Shown here in pieces: positions 36,086 to 63,521 of a stretch of 64,000 nucleotides of DNA. The position numbers and the translations under genes are program-made. Source of the DNA: Octopus vulgaris (lineage: Eukaryota). The DNA lies in assembly GCA_951406725.2 (NCBI GenBank), contig OX597830.1:28644001-28708000 (forward strand), written 5' to 3'. The number at the start of each line of letters is the position of its first letter. Within the stretch, counting starts at the first letter, position 1. The notes beneath the pieces are model-generated. The model had not been told where the DNA came from. It searched no databases and saw only the letters and a list, made by a program, of their open reading frames with translations.

Positions 36086-37045
36086 TCTTCTTTGTTTCAT
36101 TTGACAACACTTTCATAAATATTGAATCACATATTTCTTGTGGTTATATAACAGACGGGAATGGGGGATGCGCACGCTGAGCATAACATTACGATGTAAG
36201 CTTTTAATGTGCTTCTTTCACGATTCTGATTGATATACACACTCATGGACGAGTCTATTGAGAATTGGACAAGGGTACAGAAAGTTTTATGCTTCAGTGA
36301 TATCGATGTTTTCGTGACCAGGGCTTTAATGGACTGATTTCTCTGCGCAGTAAGTAGTTACGGCATAGGAAACTTCAGACACCTGCAGAAAACTACAATA
36401 CAGCTGTTACTTGTGAGAAAGTATGACTTAGAACCATGTACGACATTTCACTAAATGATTTAAACGCCTATGTAGTGTCACATATGTCCCCCTCTCAGTT
36501 CCGTCACCTTAGCGCAGTGGTATATGTAGGATGTAATAGCTGGAGCGGTAAAAAGGTGCAGCATCTCACTGGCGGTGCGCATTTTCAGATGTGCAGACTG
36601 AGGAAACGTCGGATTATGTCCATTGCTTAAGAACAAATCGCAGTATCGTAACTGGGATATGAAAACTCCACTTTATAATCGAAATATTAACCACTTGACC
36701 AGGGGTCTCTCCAAATGTTTCAAATATCCGTCTATCTAATCCACAATCCAAATAAAACTTACCCACACGGAAACTGATGAACAATTTCTTCAATAAGCTG
36801 CAATTTAAAAATTATAAAACAGAGTTAGCAAACAATTGAAGTGGAATTGTCCTGAAATAGCACTTTGTTACTTGTGAATAGTTAGCATAAACAGCATACC
36901 AGATATCCTGTAACATCATTGAATAGCAAGATTATATAAAATATTATATATGTTTTACAGTACATACAAGCACACTCACATTCGCCATGATAGATCGGTA
37001 GCCACTACACACATTTTTTTCTCTCCTTGTTTCTTTCTGAGTTCC

Positions 37046-37079
37046 TTTCTGTGGAAGAGCGTAGGCTCGAAACGTTAAA
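37046..37079 (+). ncRNA. Minimal hammerhead-like motif, family A variant (cassette about 36980-37175)
   Basis: TTT CTGTGGA A GAGC gtag GCTC GAAA CG TT AAA; core has A6>U. Confidence 0.6.
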
Positions 37080-37941
37080 TACTTTTTCCATTCCCGAGCA
37101 TATACTCATATATCTCTTTGTTTTCTACATCACCTGTCTTCGTCTTTTGGGGTTTTTTTTTGTGAATTCTCCATATATACATATATATATAAGTATATAT
37201 ATATATATATATATATACTTATATATGCAACAAGGCTGCAGAATCGACATGATCCTTTTCCAATTTAAATTTACATATACAGTACCTCTATCACATGAAG
37301 TCTATTGTGTCTGGTTCTTTCGTCCTTATCAGCTCAATAACCAGAGAAATAGATGTGTTTCAGAATTGCTTATGGATTGAATTACCCCTATTCAACACGT
37401 AAATATGCGGGAGGAATAAAAAATTATAAGACAAATAGAAAAGAGCGCAAAAATAGAAGAGCATAAAATTTTTTCAAAGACAAGTCTTGCAAATACTGCT
37501 CACCGAATATCTCAAAACCTACATTCATTGGTTAAACAATTGCTAAAACAAAGGCTATAAACACTGGGGGTTTCAAATGTTTATTTACCATTGTGCATTT
37601 ATACAAGCGTAAACATTCGCAAATTTATGCAGCTACAGACAATGCTTTCAAGGGGATAGTCGCCGAGTCACGTGAAATAATCTGATATTTAACAAATTTA
37701 TTATTTTATCTCAATGGGTATCCAAACACAGACTATTCACCAGTCCATTTTGGTGCGTTTACTGGTTTAATCACAGATGGTTTCAACATACACAGGCTTT
37801 TATCCGTGTCTGTGTCACCATTTCAAATGAACACATTCGTAGATTACAATTCAACATTGTTCTATCTGGTCATCGTACACACACTCAGATATACACACAC
37901 ACAAACACACACACACATATGCACGAACACATACTGACACG

Positions 37942-53499: not shown

Positions 53500-54125
53500 G
53501 GTGATGGGGCACCACCTTGAAGATGTTTTAGATAAATGAATCGACCCCAATCTTTATTTATTTAAAGTGCGTTACTTATTATATCGAGCCACTACCTTTC
53601 GGGGGCACAAACATGCCACATCGGCTGTCAAGCAGTGTATTCGGGGAAAACACGGACACAATGGCATACTTAAGTAGATATGCAAGCATATATACATGCA
53701 TACTTACATACATACATATATATGGTCATTTCAAAACGTCACAAGTGAATCATAGACGATTTTCTTCCTTCGTCTTCCCTTCTATTGCACTTTCCTCTGT
53801 TTCCGAAGAAGAGTGTCTGCTCGAAACGTTAAACCATCTTTCTTTACTTCCATGAGCGTCTGCTAATATTTTGCAGGTGCCACATCCTCGCGTTGTGTTT
53901 TTTTTTGTTTTCGTTTTTGTGTTTGTTCTTTTGTGGATTTACTATATATACATTCATATACGTATGGCTTCTTTCAGTCTCCGTCATGGAAAATCCGCTC
54001 ACACAATCAGAAGGCTTTGGTTGGCCCGAAGCTCTAGTAGATGACACTTTCCTAAATTGTCATTCATTGGGAGTGAACCCGGAACTAAGTGACAGGGAAG
54101 CAAGCTCCTTAAACCGCCTCTCCAC
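53500..54125 (-). mobile_element. Old SINE group C interrupted by a family A hammerhead cassette (about 53725-53945)
   Basis: Tail half 53500-53670 and head half 53960-54125 flank the cassette, which sits in the internal microsatellite. Confidence 0.7.
53799..53834 (+). ncRNA. Minimal hammerhead-like motif, family A
   Basis: GTTT CCGAAGA A GAGT gtct GCTC GAAA CG TT AAAC; core has U4>C; G-U pair in stem II. Confidence 0.65.
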
Positions 54126-58349: not shown

Positions 58350-58705
58350 GTTCAATGGACTGTGCTGAGTTCTCAAACATTTAAACCAATGTTTCTCAAA
58401 ACAACTTGTCCGACCGTCCCATAGGCCTCTCCTTTGAGAAACACTGATTTAACCTAAATTTGAGACACCAGCAAAAGAAGAAATAAAGATAGACTTATTT
58501 CTATTCCAAGAAAAACGATTTTACAAATGCACGTTCCCACGGCTTTATCGACCGCATTCTCACCTGGAATCGATTTTTGTAATTTTTCAAGACTTATACT
58601 CGCCCTGATACCGTTGGTATCTACATATTACATTTGAGCACAAATGGATGGAGGATGCCCGAGATCCTTGAAGACACACACACAGACAGAACGGATTTTA
58701 TATAA
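58350..58705 (+). mobile_element. Second copy of the Helitron-like dispersed repeat
   Basis: Homologous to 50325-50715. Confidence 0.6.
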
Positions 58706-58828
58706 TATATATATATATATATATATAGTTAATCCAAAAATGAAAGCACAAAGAGAAAACACAACAACCCGAGGACGTGGAACAAATATAGTATTATTGG
58801 ACGCTCAGGAAGGAAGGAAAGAAGGAGA

Positions 58829-58863
58829 GTTTAACGTTTCGAGCAGAGCTCTTCGTCAGAAAC
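58829..58863 (-). ncRNA. Minimal type-I hammerhead ribozyme, family A (cassette 58727-58935)
   Basis: Minus: GTTT CTGACGA A GAGC tct GCTC GAAA CG TT AAAC. Full core, stems I and II, palindromic ACGU stem III, GUU site. Confidence 0.78.
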
Positions 58864-58949
58864 ATAGGAAAAGGAAAGATCCAGAGAAGGGAAGACGGAG
58901 GAAGAAAAAACGCCAACGGTACACACGCGGTCACATACACACACATAAA

Positions 58950-59760
58950 GTGTTGGGCCTAAATTTTGACGATTTTCTACGTTTCATTTTCTCAGGTACA
59001 GTTTAATGCCTTGGCTGGCATTGGAGATTACTGTTATTAATGTTAGCAGGCATTGAGTATTAGAAACGATCAGAACTTTTCGAAAGTCCCACTATATGAT
59101 GATGGTTTGTGCCGGGTGTCAAAATATGGACATCATGATTTTGAGACGTGAAATGGACATCATGAAAAATGTTCATTGTGTATATCTCCGGTGAGGGTGA
59201 CGTCAAGCTTCATCATTGAACAGGGTCTTGGGTTCAATTCTGGCAGTCTCTATATGCATCTATATATACGTATATACAAAGGGGTGCTGAAAAGTTCCTG
59301 GCTTTAAAAGCATCGCAAAAGGTCTTGTTTGGAGGCCCAATATTTTGAGTTCTTTTTTAGGGATTGGAAAAAAACCAAGTACCGTTTTAATAAGTGTGTG
59401 AATCTGAGCGGAATATATCTTCAATAAAATGTGATCAATACCTAGATGGTCAGGGGTATGATAGAAGACTATTATTTACGGCAAAAGAATTCGGCTTTTC
59501 GTCATACACCCAGAAAGATTAAGAAGTGGTTGTCGGTAAATTTCTGTGACTTCACCAGCCACAATTTCTGACCTCTCAATTCCCCCAGTTGTAATCCCAT
59601 GTATTATTATGGGTGAGACGTAGAATAAAAAGACACCAACCACTCTGCCTGCAGTAACAACACCAATCTGCTGGCCGAGATCGAAGAGGTGTCCGAAGAT
59701 CTTCCCAGGAACACAATGAGTAAGGCATACCCCAGGTTACGGAGTCTTCTTGAGGGCAGG
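58950..59760 (+). mobile_element. Internally deleted maT/DD37D-like transposon, interrupted by a mariner-type MITE fragment (about 59275-59430)
   Basis: ISGEGDVKL..EQGL, then [61 protein letters not shown] (cf. WPPNSPDCNPMDY); insert starts TACAAAGGGGTGCTGAAAAGTTCCTGGC. Confidence 0.8.
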
Positions 59761-59837
59761 GAATGGTCGTAAAAAGCTCTATGAAAATGACCGTTCAACA
59801 ACGGGATCATTTTCATAGCATTTGTTTTCGATGGCCC

Positions 59838-59898
59838 GATAACCGAAGAGATGGAAGCGTGTGTTTCCGCCCCGACATCCGAAACTCGGAGTTTTATC
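59838..59898 (+). ncRNA. Hammerhead-like motif, unique family
   Basis: GATAA CCGAAGA GATG ..22 nt.. CATC C GAAA CTC G GAG TT TTATC; 5-bp stem I, near-palindromic stem III, core has U4>C. Confidence 0.62.
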
Positions 59899-59930
59899 AT
59901 GGCTACTGAGTGATTGTCACATATTATATT

Positions 59931-59994
<64 letters not shown>

Positions 59995-60092
59995 TATATA
60001 CAGAGAGAGAGAGAGAGAGAGAAAGAGAGAATGAGAAAGACATACAGACATAGATATATATTTACACATGCATATATGATGTACTGTATATA

Positions 60093-60130
<38 letters not shown>

Positions 60131-60651
60131 TATATGTATGTACATATATATATATATATACATATATATGTGTGTGTGTATATATATATATATATATGCA
60201 TATATATATATACGTATACATATATATAAATATACACATGGACACTCATATTTATGTATATACATACATACAAACATATATATACATATATATATTTAGT
60301 GAATGCGTACATGCACTGGCATATAGTACGTGTATATTAACGCCTATGAATGCGAAGTGTTGTGCTTCAACGTGTGTCTCATCGCATACGATGGTTTTAA
60401 AAGGCATTAAATTTGAAGTAAAAATATATCCTGTCTACGATAGAAAAGAAATACTGATAACGGAACAACTCAATGGAATTCAATATCAATAGACTTATGT
60501 TTGACCTTTGACATTATAACAACTCAATTCGAAGATGTGACGTCATGCAGAGTGAGGCGGTAGCAACAGTTAATATTCATTCAAATCAAGATTAAGCATA
60601 GGGTGTACATATATAAATGTAAATATATATAAGCTTACTTGTGTATAAGTT

Positions 60652-60683
<32 letters not shown>

Positions 60684-60753
60684 TGCATATATGTAAATGT
60701 ATATATATATATGCATATATGTATATATATATGTGTGTATATGTATATATATG

Positions 60754-60828
<75 letters not shown>

Positions 60829-60837
60829 ATGAATATG

Positions 60838-60885
<48 letters not shown>

Positions 60886-61329
60886 CATATATATATATAT
60901 ATATGTATATATGTATACATATAATGTGTGTGTTTGTTTGTGTGTGTGTATGTGTGTGTGTGTGTGTGAGTATGTGTGTATAATCATGTGTATTAAAGTC
61001 CTTATAAACTGTCTAGATTAAGCCAAAAAGTTCCAAAACAATTTCTGAAATATGTACGTAATTGTTGTTCCATTTCAATGGGAAAATAATATCTAAAAGT
61101 TTCAAAGTTTAGAATCTTTATACTTGCTATATTTCCGAAACGGTGTGTTTCTTACACACGTACGCATGCACGCACAAATACAAATATACATACATACATA
61201 CATACATACATACATACATACATACATACATACATACATACATACATAAATACATACATACATACATACATACATACATACATACACACATATATATATA
61301 AAGAATTTATATCTGTCCGTTTCTCTGGC

Positions 61330-61362
<33 letters not shown>

Positions 61363-61424
61363 ATTTCTTTACACACATATATATAACATATATGCATATT
61401 CATATATGTGTAAACACTCATACC

Positions 61425-61491
<67 letters not shown>

Positions 61492-62079
61492 GTGTGTGTG
61501 TGTCTGTATATATATATATATAAACTCATACACATACATATATATTGTTACTACTACGACTTTTCCGTACTTCACAAAATACTCTCCCATAATTAAACTT
61601 ACAGAAGTATTTTTCTTTAACTGTCTGCAACAAATATTCATAAATTTATGAGTTATTTGGTGTCGTGATTCAGAAATGACGGAAAGAGCTAAGAAAAATA
61701 TAGAGTGAAATGAATAGGTGCGTGATATTATAACAAGATTTTTTTGTTTCTGTCAATTCTGTATCAAGGAACCGTGTCTTTCATCAAACGTTGTTGAAGA
61801 CAGAATCCCTCTGTGACCAGAAGTCAGTGACTGAATGTAAGTCGGTTTTGAACGTGCAAATATGCCAAAGAGTAGACAGATATATAGCCAAACGGATGGA
61901 GCTTCGCACAGAGAGAAATCTATAAACTACTCAAATAGATATTATCTCTCAAGCAGCTTACACGTTGATTACTAATACACAACTACGCCATTTAATTTTA
62001 CCAAGCGACGTATTTTACACCACACCCCTTCACAAAGGAATGACAAACACACGGGCACTTATATATATGTGTGTTTGAC

Positions 62080-62310
62080 ACTGTGGTTAGAGCATCTGGT
62101 CTACAATCGTGGGATTCTGGGTTCATTTTCCAGATCGGACAGTGCGATGTGTTCTTGAGCAAGACACTTTATTTTCACATTGGTTCAGTTCATTAAGCTG
62201 CAGAAATGAGTTGCGACGTCACTGGTTCTAAGCTGTATCAGCCTTTGCCTTTTCTTTGGACAACATCGGCAGCGTAGAGAAGGAAGACTGGTGTTCATAG
62301 GTAATTGCTG
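62080..62310 (+). mobile_element. SINE group K (body B), diverged
   Basis: GTGGTTAGAG..GGGTTC..TGTGTTCTTGAGCAAGACACTTTATTTCAC..AGCTGCAGAAATGAGT. Confidence 0.7.
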
Positions 62311-62709
62311 GTCTTCAACAAACAAGATATGTAGATGTAATCTCATGGACATTTGTAGCAGAAGGTCTTCTTTATATACATATAATGGACACTCTGGTCG
62401 AAGACGAAGTATAATTGTTCAGCTGTTACCGAATGACCTGAACAAATGATTTGTTTATACTGATCAAATGCATGTGCTGTACATTGGCTCACACCCTTCA
62501 TCAAATCGACGTTGCCAGGGCATAGTTGCCGTTGCCAGAACATAGTGTACTACACGTTTGGTGTTCAAGTGATCAGAGATCAACGTGAGATAAAATGATT
62601 TGCTCAAAAATACACCGCAGCACCCGGTATAAAAATTTAAACTACTATCTTGCGATTGGGAGTGCAACACTCTAATCACAAGGCCGTGCATACGTACATA
62701 CATATATAG

Positions 62710-62778
<69 letters not shown>

Positions 62779-62906
62779 CTGGCAAATAAATAAATAGATA
62801 AATAATTATATATATGTATATCCGTCTTTTTAGTATGTGACCTCGTGAATACTACCTGCAATTTTTTTCCTCTGTCCTCCCGTCTCGGGATCTTTCTTTC
62901 TCCTAT

Positions 62907-62941
62907 GTTTCTGACGAAGAGCTCCGCTCGAAACGTCAAAC
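62907..62941 (+). ncRNA. Minimal type-I hammerhead ribozyme, family A (cassette about 62835-63045)
   Basis: GTTT CTGACGA A GAGC tcc GCTC GAAA CG TC AAAC. Full core with GUC site. Confidence 0.8.
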
Positions 62942-63069
62942 CCTCCTTCTTCCCTTCTTTCCTGAGCGTCCAATAATACTTTATTTGTTCCACATCCTTG
63001 CGTTGTTGTCTTTTTGTTTTCTTGTTTGGATTAACTTTATGTATATATATATATGTGTGTGTTTGTGTG

Positions 63070-63315
63070 TGGAGGCGCAATGGCCCAGTGGTTAGGGTAG
63101 CGGTTCCGCGGTCGGATGATCGCGGTTTATTGAGCGAAAACACCTAAAAGCTCCACGAGGTCCGGCAGGGGGTGGTGGCGACCCTCTGTTGTACTCTTTC
63201 GCCACAACTTTCTCTCACTCTCTCTTCTTGTTTCTTGAGTAATGCTGCGATGGACTGACGCCACAGAAACTGGGAAACCGGGCCCATGAGCCTGGCTAGG
63301 CTTGAAAAAGGCGAC
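63070..63315 (+). mobile_element. SINE group K (body A, internally deleted, tail Y-like)
   Basis: TGGAGGCGCAATGGCCCAGTGGTTAGGG head matching the 43481 copy; GAAACTGGGAAACCGGGCCCATGAGCC tail. Confidence 0.85.
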
Positions 63316-63521
63316 GTTTATCGTTTTATATGTATATATATATATATATATATACAAATTTAAAAGAGGAATGAGCACTAAAGTGGTCACCCTATATGCT
63401 AAACATAGACGCCAAATCGCCATTACCACGAAGAATGTGTTCTCAAGAAAAAAGTCTCAGCGAAACACCAAAATTAAAAATGATCAAGACAAATGAAAAC
63501 ATGCAAAATGAAAACGATTAC

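Follow-up and report, generated by a model that had tools for sequence, protein, structure and literature searches.

The window analysed here is a stretch of 64,000 nucleotides of the Octopus vulgaris genome (contig OX597830.1, positions 28,644,001 to 28,708,000 of the forward strand). It carries two copies of a short repeat, called family A in this work, each with a 35-nt minimal hammerhead motif. A preliminary description had placed these copies at 58727 (-) and 62835 (+); both were found. By BLAST their identity is 82.2% in an alignment of 219 nt, or 85.2% in one of 182 nt. The first, identified from sequence and BLAST at 58727..58936 on the minus strand, is a near full-length unit of an older subfamily with a canonical CUGACGA core. 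Its motif (58829..58863, -) has the loop UCU and the cleavage triplet GUU, and (TA)n lies immediately 3' of the copy (58703..58726, -). The second copy, at 62822..63036 on the plus strand, belongs to the youngest subfamily, is 5'-truncated within a longer CA-rich non-coding element and has 42 genomic matches at 97-100% identity. Its motif at 62907..62941 (+) reads GUUU / CUGACGA / A / GAGC-UCC-GCUC / GAAA / CGU-C / AAAC, with cleavage predicted after C62937, and a microsatellite tail or target, TTA(TG)(TA)n(TG)n, follows the copy directly at 63037..63072 (+). Near their 5' ends the two copies share TATGTGACC followed by G or T and then CGTG, as had been described, but the second does not start there: it extends 13 nt further 5', from 62822 (CCGTCTTTTTAGT), and these 13 nt match longer genomic copies. 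The pyrimidine-rich body and the GGATTAACT end followed by (TA)n are present in both, again in line with the preliminary description. Common to both is also the string CTGACGA-A-GAGC-TC[C/T]-GCTC-GAAA-CGT[C/T]-AAAC after GTTT, 35 nt in all, with the extra A after CUGANGA that had been pointed out earlier. The consensus core is thus found in the window copies as CTGACGA...GAAACGTC and ...GAAACGTT, with H (not G) at the cleavage site.

More distant copies lie elsewhere in the window. A diverged family A relative, expected near 53.8k, is located at 53759..53919 (+) with 73-74% identity over 170-175 nt; its motif (53799-53834, +) has CCGAAGA, a GAGU/GCUC stem II and the loop GUCU, and the exact string of its stem II and loop occurs only 13 times in the genome. 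The relative reported near 37.0k is real, but it belongs to a sister family, B, and not to family A. This copy (36979..37172, +; 88.6% identity to locus L134 over 193 nt) is the 3' terminal module of a Penelope-like element, and its motif at 37045-37080 (+) carries CUGUGGA (A6U) and the loop GUAG. Near 10.05k, where a third relative had been suspected, BLAST detected none with family A at E<=10 or with the sister family at E<=1e-3. The pattern GAAGAGY-N3-6-GCTCGAAAYGT was found four times in the window (at 37054, 53808, 58834 on the minus strand, and 62916) vs 0 expected, and CTGANGA-N12-GAAACGTH twice vs 0.01 expected from 100 shuffles. Rfam returned no matches for the whole window at the gathering score. 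In 58500-63300 a search at E<=10 gave 142 sub-threshold matches; they were miRNA look-alikes driven by microsatellites, and none was a hammerhead. With a loopless stem III, a miss by Rfam is to be expected.

In the 2.8-Gb genome family A has at least 15,223 copies by an anchor pattern, compared with 215 for the reversed control. The copies are dispersed and mostly solo, and the unit is non-coding and about 215-225 nt long. In an unbiased sample of 60 copies, 29 start at the very first query position, 45 start somewhere in the first 13 nt, and 54 end at query positions 206-211; the ends are constant and not permuted. The idea of a defined cassette holds for the older subfamily only, in which 45/60 start within those 13 nt; copies of the youngest subfamily are 5'-truncated versions of a CA-rich non-coding element at least 3 kb long. 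At 6 of the 60 loci (five pairs, two direct and three inverted) another piece was present within 1.5 kb, always across a microsatellite, and one more direct pair was seen at L009. Head-to-tail arrays were absent from the 90 loci inspected, so the proposed check on copy number and tandem arrays gave a high number and no arrays.

These data bear on whether family A could be a non-LTR retrozyme, as the preliminary description had suggested, in which a tandem transcript is cut by the hammerhead into unit RNAs and a circle serves as template for new copies. Animal retrozymes (Cervera and de la Pena, 2020, PMC7229834; Li, Clavereau and Pollet, 2026, preprint) are described as short non-coding hammerhead repeats of 170-400 nt, a range that includes the unit of about 215 nt; solo monomers occur among them, with monomer shares from 0 to 1 in the preprint, which also ties them to Penelope terminal repeats, the origin proposed for retrozymes. 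The few direct pairs (L009 and two among 60 loci) would fit as well. However, retrozymes are described in PMC7229834 as head-to-tail tandems with canonical type I hammerheads, expressed as circles, whereas family A copies are solo, (TA)n-flanked and equipped with a minimal motif in place of the canonical looped type I, and the genomic copies show no sign of a circular intermediate. The five pairs in 60 loci have a microsatellite between their members, the copy ends do not permute, and 0 of 100 sampled copies start at the predicted cleavage site. We consider the retrozyme explanation very improbable. As a side observation, assembled contigs of public runs included one in X10 that "goes back 61" and one in X17 with 11 letters between, which is too little to speak of a circle or a tandem. 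Summed depth in these contigs was higher over the motif; assembled contigs show neither the ends, strand nor level of an RNA, and their depth does not rank the parts of a stretch.

The insertion sites resemble those of Penelope-like elements. A (TA)>=4 run was scored within 40 nt 3' of the element in 55 of the 60 sampled copies; on the 5' side it was present in 39 of the 60 and on both sides in 37 of the 60, against a background of 10-18%. Microsatellite targets, 5' truncation and occasional inverted or tandem partners together form a Penelope-like insertion signature, which supports membership of family A in this group and is not unique to it: (TA)n is palindromic, and inverted and direct pairs can come from repeated hits. 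Microsatellite targeting is also known in some LINE clades.

Sister family B has at least 24,280 copies in the genome (about 40,000 together with family A). Family B queries align to family A copies over 160-200 nt with E of about 2e-6 to 8e-5, and a 13-row alignment of the two families has its invariant columns concentrated in two places, the hammerhead block and a GAGCG block; the whole family A module is homologous to the family B module. Family B, in turn, is the 3' terminus of a Penelope-like element with a reverse transcriptase (RT) fragment and a GIY-YIG endonuclease. At L156 there are two tandem partial Penelope-like copies, each with the RT C-terminus (YIDD), a C-x-R-x-R-C-x-T-C linker and NIIYCISCSLC..YIGQTG, and in each the order is coding part, low-complexity 3' region, family B module and (TA)n. 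An endonuclease was detected by tblastn at 3 of 30 family B loci (L139, L154 and L155), and also in the open frames of L142 and L148. Pfam gave nothing for P0001, an endonuclease fragment, or for the 557-aa frame of the element PLE-2. Because family B is a Penelope-like 3' terminus, the shared motif is the known Penelope-type "min-HHR", seen here at a Penelope end. A derivation of the module from a Penelope terminal repeat fits this homology.

A second, very abundant Penelope-like element, PLE-1 (17,595 first-look candidates), also ends in (TA)n. Its open frames reach 895 aa, and its ORF (816-869 aa) carries an RVT_1 match of 30 bits, a CX4CX2C linker and a GIY-YIG-like block; its nearest Atlas clusters carry GIY-YIG and RVT_1. 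The feature of an autonomous Penelope-like element, one ORF with RT and GIY-YIG, is thus present in PLE-1, in part in PLE-2, and not in family A, which is non-coding. Endonuclease-bearing Penelope-like elements as described by Craig et al. (2021, PMC8557442) share several traits with the octopus elements: a preference for (TA)n targets, a CX2-5CxxC linker upstream of a GIY-YIG with two inner cysteines, partial tandem and inverted copies, and a hammerhead near the 3' end. They differ in that family A encodes nothing and in that the PLE-1 and PLE-2 cores are non-canonical (U3-A8 and A6U, respectively). The 37.0k-type module was considered as part of the PLE-1 3' UTR and rejected, as it occurs at only 3 of 30 PLE-1 loci, each time behind (TA)n as a separate insertion.

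We looked for a coding partner attached to family A. Searches covering at least 3 kb upstream of the long form gave no RT or endonuclease, and the 1.5 kb upstream of 60 sampled copies gave none of family A's own; the lone endonuclease frame there (L066) belongs to a neighbouring PLE-1. Three 10-kb upstream stretches had nothing in common beyond the CA-rich region. The unique 5' segment of the long form gave 152 first-look candidates, and in 30 loci with this segment RT or endonuclease was seen only in a neighbouring PLE-1 (L186) and as weak remnants (L178 and L170). PLE-1 itself was rejected as the parent of family A, with no DNA similarity between the two and no PLE-1 copy in the window.

A short discrete unit with a sharp 5' end, a microsatellite tail and no attached coding region might also be a SINE-like repeat moved by a microsatellite-targeting LINE, with the hammerhead-like block a relic unrelated to mobility. 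Against this stands the homology of the whole module to a Penelope-like 3' end, and no LINE with a matching 3' end turned up in passing. In addition, the sense strand of the 62822..63036 copy has a 7-T run at 62862-62868. Such a run would stop RNA polymerase III, so that a classical pol III SINE is unlikely. No tRNA-like head was recognized in family A by eye, and internal T runs are present; ARAGORN gave nothing on 62900-63500, a stretch without the 5' part of the copy. The schistosome Sm-alpha and Sj-alpha are likewise short, dispersed, high-copy hammerhead retroposons, and are described in a review (PMC6765202) as a promoter followed by a hammerhead, a promoter head of which family A shows no tRNA-like counterpart. 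All in all, the LINE-driven SINE is an improbable account of family A. Family A is probably a non-coding, (TA)n-dwelling retroposon with a Penelope-type min-HHR, likely copied in trans by a Penelope-like RT and GIY-YIG endonuclease of the same genome.

Next, we examined the hammerhead motif for structure and constraint. The family A motif has a 4-bp helix I (GUUU/AAAC), one extra A ahead of GAGC/GCUC, and the palindrome ACGU as helix III. Pairing was 96.5% of cells in 22 rows (20 distinct), against 15-42% when the 3' partner was slid by 1-3 columns. The motif block is far better kept than its flanks across the subfamilies and the sister family, which answers the proposed comparison of core and flanks in favour of the motif. 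Position 7 takes all four bases in family B, and at position 17, as read from 100 listed rows, U, C and A occur but G does not, in keeping with the earlier statement that H varies among allowed bases. Stem I pair 8-43, the outermost, is GC in 9 rows and CG in 7, with one GU row and three others; the two families differ by this GC/CG split (G-C in A, C-G in B), so covariation, which had been asked of this motif, is present but limited to a single base pair and essentially one event between two families. The conservation pattern is hammerhead-shaped, one compensatory stem I pair included. As had been noted, stem II stays paired while its loop varies; the difference of TCC to TCT, however, is a CpG transition and not free loop variation. 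A lone monomer is predicted by a minimum-free-energy fold to form a competing hairpin, UGACG/CGUCA, of -9.9 kcal/mol. Judged from the sequence, the motif is best supported as a minimal hammerhead with a loopless stem III, the kind that would act only as a dimer.

This architecture, as the preliminary description had read it, matches the min-HHR reported by Cervera and de la Pena (2014, PMC4209133) in metazoan Penelope-like terminal repeats. Shared features are a type I fold whose helix I has 4-5 bp and lacks a defined loop 1, a single unpaired base on the 5' side of helix II, a loopless helix III that permits the active fold only in a dimer, and copies that are mostly single and widespread, some of them close together on opposite strands. 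Dimeric Penelope hammerheads were also studied by Lunse et al. (2017), as summarised in PMC6765202. A repeat-annotation paper on an octopus genome makes no mention of hammerheads. Helix II is 4 bp here, unlike the 7-8 bp given for the schistosome min-HHR families (PMC4209133). Two other features differ from that description: most octopus copies have a non-consensus core (U4C in family A, A6U in family B), and family A is a discrete short unit with no attached coding region and not only a truncated end. Our observation is therefore of a Penelope-type min-HHR known already, of which family A is a further member.

The block might instead resemble a hammerhead by chance, being a protein-binding or priming hairpin in which a single master copy turned CCGA into CUGA through CpG decay. 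CCGA does occur in several lineages, including the distant 53759 type, and the 5' core strand varies (CUGACGA, CCGACGA, CCGAAGA, CUGUNGA) while stem II and GAAACGU never do; moreover, the 62835 copy did gain its CUGA through CpG decay. Chance likeness is nevertheless unlikely in our estimate: the variable positions are those a hammerhead allows (any base at N7, never G at H17), stem I covaries, and published min-HHRs (PMC4209133) likewise have the extra base before helix II and a palindromic helix III. Canonical cores are found in the oldest family A subfamily and in the L129 type of family B (CUGAUGA), and matches to the motif pattern in the window exceed chance 200-fold.

The core variants have a history of their own. 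Exact 20-mers counted genome-wide gave 8,555 CCGACGA, 4,488 CTGACGA and 376 CCAACGA; CTGA is 12 times commoner than the mirror product of CpG decay and is thus a heritable state. About one third of family A cores are canonical and two thirds CCGACGA (U4C), and the first 100 anchor matches listed had, by hand count, 31 CTG, 62 CCG, 4 CCA, 2 CAG and 1 unrelated. A hand count of 100 listed family B rows gave 87 with CUGUNGA (A6U). CT copies are the most diverged, with a mean pairwise distance of 0.162, against 0.113 for the intermediate CC copies and 0.055 for the young subfamily. In the tree CT copies are basal and CC copies form a nested clade (SH-aLRT 87), and the nearest rows of the 58727..58936 copy are the CT copies L051, L043, L031, L052 and L053. 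The root is a long branch with its own state, C, which leaves the ancestral base at position 4 unproven. Rooting U4/C4 by the 53759 type was uninformative, as its 13 exact copies are mixed: five CCG, five CTG-type (four CTGAAGA and one CTGAATA), one CCA, one CAG and one family-B-like. The consensus core was not kept in the master lineages: U4C is heritable in the intermediate and young family A subfamilies, and in the L086 and L088 lineages AUAC additionally disrupts one pair of stem I.

With its CUGA, the 62835 copy is unusual within its subfamily. Among 30 near-identical loci, 25 motif rows were obtained (6 loci were missed by the regular expression), comprising 2 CTGACGA, 21 CCGACGA, 1 CCAACGA and 1 CCGACAA. 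T62912 (U4) is thus C in 21 of the 25 rows, and the CUGA of this copy is a secondary CpG change, the T being regained by CpG decay.

U4C and A6U strongly lower the activity of minimal hammerheads according to mutational work cited by Perreault et al. (2011, PMC3088659), and the family A ribozyme is predicted to be weak or vestigial in most copies. With U4C or A6U in most copies, the conserved block may not act as a ribozyme at all. A natural viroid hammerhead with U4C, the same change as in the CCGACGA subfamilies, is described in PMC3088659 as much less active in vitro and sufficient in vivo; the viroid is a replicating RNA under direct selection, whereas here U4C sits in a retroposon. Penelope-like elements are reported to proliferate well without canonical hammerheads, and the role of the hammerhead in them is still called unclear (PMC8557442).

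For family A as a retroposon copied in trans, the following course can be proposed. A transcript with (UA)n at its end would anneal to (TA)n DNA at a nick, where reverse transcription would take place, and the 5' end of the new copy would be joined by microhomology. Priming and joining of this kind would give sharp 5' ends by TA/TG repeats and no visible target duplications. The hammerhead would fold only when two copies pair via the ACGU palindrome, and it is predicted to be inert in solo copies for that reason. The oldest subfamily would have had the canonical CUGACGA, with later masters fixing U4C, some of them losing a stem I pair, and amplifying further. Since such masters kept amplifying, efficient self-cleavage was probably not needed for spread, and the conserved block may be mainly a recognition or folding element.

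The genome offers a dated series, from the canonical core to U4C and to U4C with a broken stem I, next to a sister lineage with A6U that is joined to a coding element, and all variants were amplified to thousands of copies. This series makes it testable at the bench whether catalysis, or the folded block alone, is needed for spread. We tentatively suggest, as a possibility rather less likely than its opposite, that two huge sister families kept the hammerhead scaffold while their masters fixed changes at catalytic positions (U4C or A6U), with position 7 and the cleavage base varying as a hammerhead allows. If true, the two families would amount to a natural experiment with one of two outcomes: Penelope-type retrotransposition can do without ribozyme catalysis, the block being reused for RNA recognition or dimerisation, or deliberately weakened hammerheads that cleave only when transcripts pair are both tolerated and selected in cells. 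For annotation, family A explains many short pyrimidine-rich inserts in TA microsatellites, and hammerhead scans with a strict core see only a third of the family.

We found the two copies of family A, a non-coding element of about 215 nt, where the preliminary description had placed them in the window (C17:28644001-28708000 of a 2.8-Gb assembly with 227 contigs), at 58727-58936 (-) and 62835-63036 (+), and both read as described there. Their identity is 82.2% across 219 nt (85.2% across 182 nt), and the 62835 copy in fact begins at 62822. Both copies carry the type I minimal hammerhead of 35 nt that had been recognized in them (GUUU-CUGACGA-A-GAGC-UC[C/U]-GCUC-GAAA-CGU[C/U]-AAAC), with a stem I of 4 bp, an extra base before the 4-bp stem II, and a stem III that consists of the palindrome ACGU alone. 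The minimal hammerhead published for Penelope-like elements has the same architecture, as outlined in part of PMC4209133. The expression CTGANGA-N12-GAAACGTH has 2 matches in the window (0.01 expected from shuffles), and stem II with the 3' core block has 4 matches (0 expected). Rfam gave no hammerhead at gathering score and none at E<=10 around the family A copies, which is consistent with a motif whose stem III has no loop. Further relatives had been suggested in the window: that at 53.8k is a diverged family A member (53759-53919, 73-74% identity), that at 37.0k exists (36979-37172) but belongs to the sister family B, and near 10.05k no related sequence was found. In lone family A RNA a predicted alternative hairpin, UGACG...CGUCA around stem II (-9.9 kcal/mol for the motif region 62911-62939 and -7.7 kcal/mol for 58831-58859), would compete with the hammerhead fold. 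This hairpin pairing is not preserved in family B.

Across the genome, a 211-nt family A query gave 3,446 first-look candidates, and the 40 that were scored yielded 42 matches with 97-100% identity, mostly full length. The family A anchor pattern (ATGTTTC, 19 free positions, AAACGT) has 15,223 matches versus 215 for the reversed control. Copy ends were read in two unbiased samples with 60 copies together, the first 30 CTGACGA and the first 30 CCGACGA places of contig 1. The 5' end falls on query position 1 in 29/60 copies and within the first 13 nt in 45/60, while the 3' end falls on positions 206-211 in 54/60. A (TA)n run of at least four units within 40 nt is present 3' of the copy in 55/60, 5' of it in 39/60, and at both ends in 37/60 (background 10-18%). 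Among older copies, the upstream flanks are wholly different beyond ~10-17 nt 5' of ATGTGACC. From the constant ends, the TA flanks and the unlike upstream flanks we concluded that the family A unit is a discrete non-coding element of ~215-225 nt set in (TA)n. Contigs of four public runs (X1, X10, X16, X17) under four organism labels also contain family A, with both C and T states at window position 62912 (position 4 of the core) and C making up 65-83% of summed depth. Family A and its U4/C4 split are thus common to several related species or strains.

The youngest subfamily was sampled through the 30 copies that most closely resemble the 62835 copy. Many of these extend upstream of TATGTGACC and end at varied points, and the long copies have in common a CA-rich, low-complexity stretch, at least 1.3-1.6 kb in length and interspersed with small unique islands. 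The unique 5' island gave 152 first-look candidates only, and copies with it continue for another 1.5 kb, in which neither an open frame nor an endonuclease match belongs to these copies. Because the upstream stops vary and the common CA-rich extension has no coding match, the young lineage consists of 5'-truncated copies of a long non-coding element, whose last 215 nt are the "cassette". Copies of the long form are 77-84% alike in the CA/CATA-like part versus 97-99% in the terminal module. The long form (L165:1-1650, L160, L182; L024:380-1500, all sampled loci) is non-coding, at least 3 kb in length, and mostly CA/CATA-like sequence with small GC-rich unique islands.

Family A is homologous to the 3' end of a Penelope-like element. 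Queries from family B, whose pattern TTTC-N6-AGAGC-N-TAGGCTCGAAA has 24,280 matches and 0 in the control, give alignments of 160-200 nt with family A copies, at E values of roughly 2e-6 to 8e-5. The two families have the hammerhead block and the general layout in common, and when 13 representatives are aligned, the columns without variation concentrate in the hammerhead block and a second GAGCG block. Thirteen of 30 family B loci stop ~77-101 nt upstream of the block, and others continue up to 1,037 nt, entering a frame that encodes NIIYCISCSLC...YIGQTGRR...EH and the linker C-x-R-x-R-C-x-T-C. Judged by these motifs, the frame upstream of the B module is a GIY-YIG endonuclease with two inner cysteines, a feature that a passage of PMC8557442 gives as typical of canonical Penelope-like elements. 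Locus L156:1583-5114 contains two tandem partial copies of PLE-2, a coding Penelope-like element, each in the order linker, endonuclease, low-complexity 3' region, B module, and (TA)n, and the RT C-terminus (YIDD) stands ahead of the linker in the first copy only. This order and the endonuclease frame upstream of family B copies identify the B module as the 3' terminus of PLE-2. The long low-complexity 3' UTR stretch differs between the two L156 copies (CT-rich versus CA-rich); this part of PLE-2 seems to turn over fast from copy to copy.

The second coding Penelope-like element, PLE-1, is very abundant and gave 17,595 first-look candidates with open frames up to 895 aa. Its RVT_1 match reaches 30 bits versus a cut-off of 29.6, and its nearest Atlas clusters bear GIY-YIG and RVT_1. 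PLE-1 ends in (TA)n ~230-290 nt past the stop codon and occurs in inverted or direct partial copies, as is typical for Penelope-like elements. No DNA similarity was seen between PLE-1 and family A. The PLE-1 3' UTR has its own hammerhead-like motif (AAGAAA / UUGAAAA / GC-UAAAU-GC / GAAA / CCGG-U-C / UUUCUU), found in L124 (-), where the ORF ends at 1108 and the motif follows after ~60-100 bases, and also in L095-L123. The motif has U3-A8 in place of the usual C3-G8, a helix III formed by the palindrome ACCGGU and a helix I of 6 bp, is preserved in two subfamilies, and would be missed by strict-core searches. The hammerhead C3-G8 pair can covary, as a passage of PMC3088659 states.

Family A contains a conserved hammerhead-shaped block. 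Pairing in stems I, II, and III was scored over 22 rows (20 distinct) drawn from both families and the window: 96.5% of cells are paired, falling to 15-42% once the partner is slid by 1-3 columns. The outermost stem I pair is the sole pair changed on both sides (G-C in 9 rows, C-G in 7, G-U in 1, other in 3), and its G-C/C-G split divides family A from family B. The other nine pairs barely vary (5 invariant, 2 with one-sided changes to G-U, 2 deviating by unpaired cells only) and carry little weight either way. Position 7, with all four bases in family B, and the base before the cleavage site, where the 100 listed rows, read by eye, show U, C or A but no G, vary in ways that a hammerhead permits. 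Counting against a hammerhead-like constraint are U4C, with C at position 4 in two thirds of family A, and A6U, with U at position 6 in 87/100 listed family B rows (CUGUNGA); by the same hand count, CUGAUGA stands in only 3/100. Perreault et al. state, in a passage of PMC3088659, that most core changes lead to drastic loss of activity, and the same source describes a U4C viroid variant as much less active in vitro and sufficient in vivo. A minor family B lineage (L129 type) has the canonical CUGAUGA.

Motif rows of 30 near-identical loci (n=25; 6 loci outside the search expression) read CCGACGA in 21, CTGACGA in 2, CCAACGA in 1, and CCGACAA in 1. Exact 20-mers genome-wide number 8,555 for CCGACGA, 4,488 for CTGACGA, and 376 for CCAACGA. 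CTGA is 12 times commoner than CCAA, the mirror product of CpG decay; since CpG decay alone predicts about equal numbers, CUGA and CCGA are both master-copy states. Mean pairwise distance is highest in copies with CTGACGA (0.162), followed by intermediate CCGACGA copies (0.113) and the young set (0.055). In a tree built without the position-4 column, the CTGACGA copies are basal and the CCGACGA copies form a nested clade (SH-aLRT 87), with 6 changes of label versus a mean of 23 in shuffles. The 62835 copy reads CTGACGA and is nested within the young CCGACGA clade, which makes its U4 a secondary CpG transition. We infer from these sequences that the canonical core most likely came first and U4C later; this order falls short of proof because the root is a long branch with state C, from a tiny family of mixed states with 13 exact copies. 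Later lineages (loci L086 and L088) have AUAC, which breaks a stem I pair. The element is of modest interest, through this dated series of core variants in the two very large families.

The preliminary description had also noted that the size fits non-LTR retrozymes or solo pseudo-LTRs. A second family A piece lies within 1.5 kb at 6/60 loci, making 5 pairs (2 direct, 3 inverted) with a microsatellite between each, and no tandem arrays of family A were seen in the sampled loci. Retrozymes, as characterized in part of PMC7229834, combine tandem units with a motif of canonical type I, and family A, lacking both, is not a retrozyme in that defined sense. A portion of the 2026 preprint by Li, Clavereau and Pollet traces retrozymes back to Penelope terminal repeats and also describes solo monomers. 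From 9,497 copies that contain the nucleotides immediately 3' of the cleavage site, 100 were listed together with the 18 nt before it: 0/100 start at the predicted cleavage site, 2 are truncated inside the motif, and 1 has an internal deletion. As the ends of family A are also constant and not permuted, there is no pointer in the DNA record to a cleaved or circular RNA as template.

In the proposed mechanism, a Penelope-like RT and endonuclease supplied in trans would copy family A RNA with a terminal (UA)n into nicked (TA)n sites, and the 5' junction would be set by microhomology with the TA or TG repeat. The hammerhead would need two copies to fold, and in solo inserts it would be inert. The catalytic core of the motif appears to have drifted (U4C, then the stem I mismatch) in lineages that were still amplifying, which suggests that efficient cleavage is probably dispensable, in agreement with PMC8557442, where good proliferation is noted for Penelope-like elements lacking canonical hammerheads. 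The block may be retained for another role, e.g., recognition or dimerisation.

Elsewhere in the window, dense (TG)n/(TA)n/(CATA)n at 59800-62800 produced many sub-threshold Rfam miRNA matches (mir-297, mir-466, mir-3149), which are simple-repeat artefacts. The microsatellite tail of the 62835 copy is followed directly by another repeat at 63073-63200, which reads GGAGGCGCAATGGCCCAGTGGTTAGGG...; it looks tRNA-derived by eye, ARAGORN called no tRNA there, and its reverse complement is found upstream of the family A copy in locus L044.
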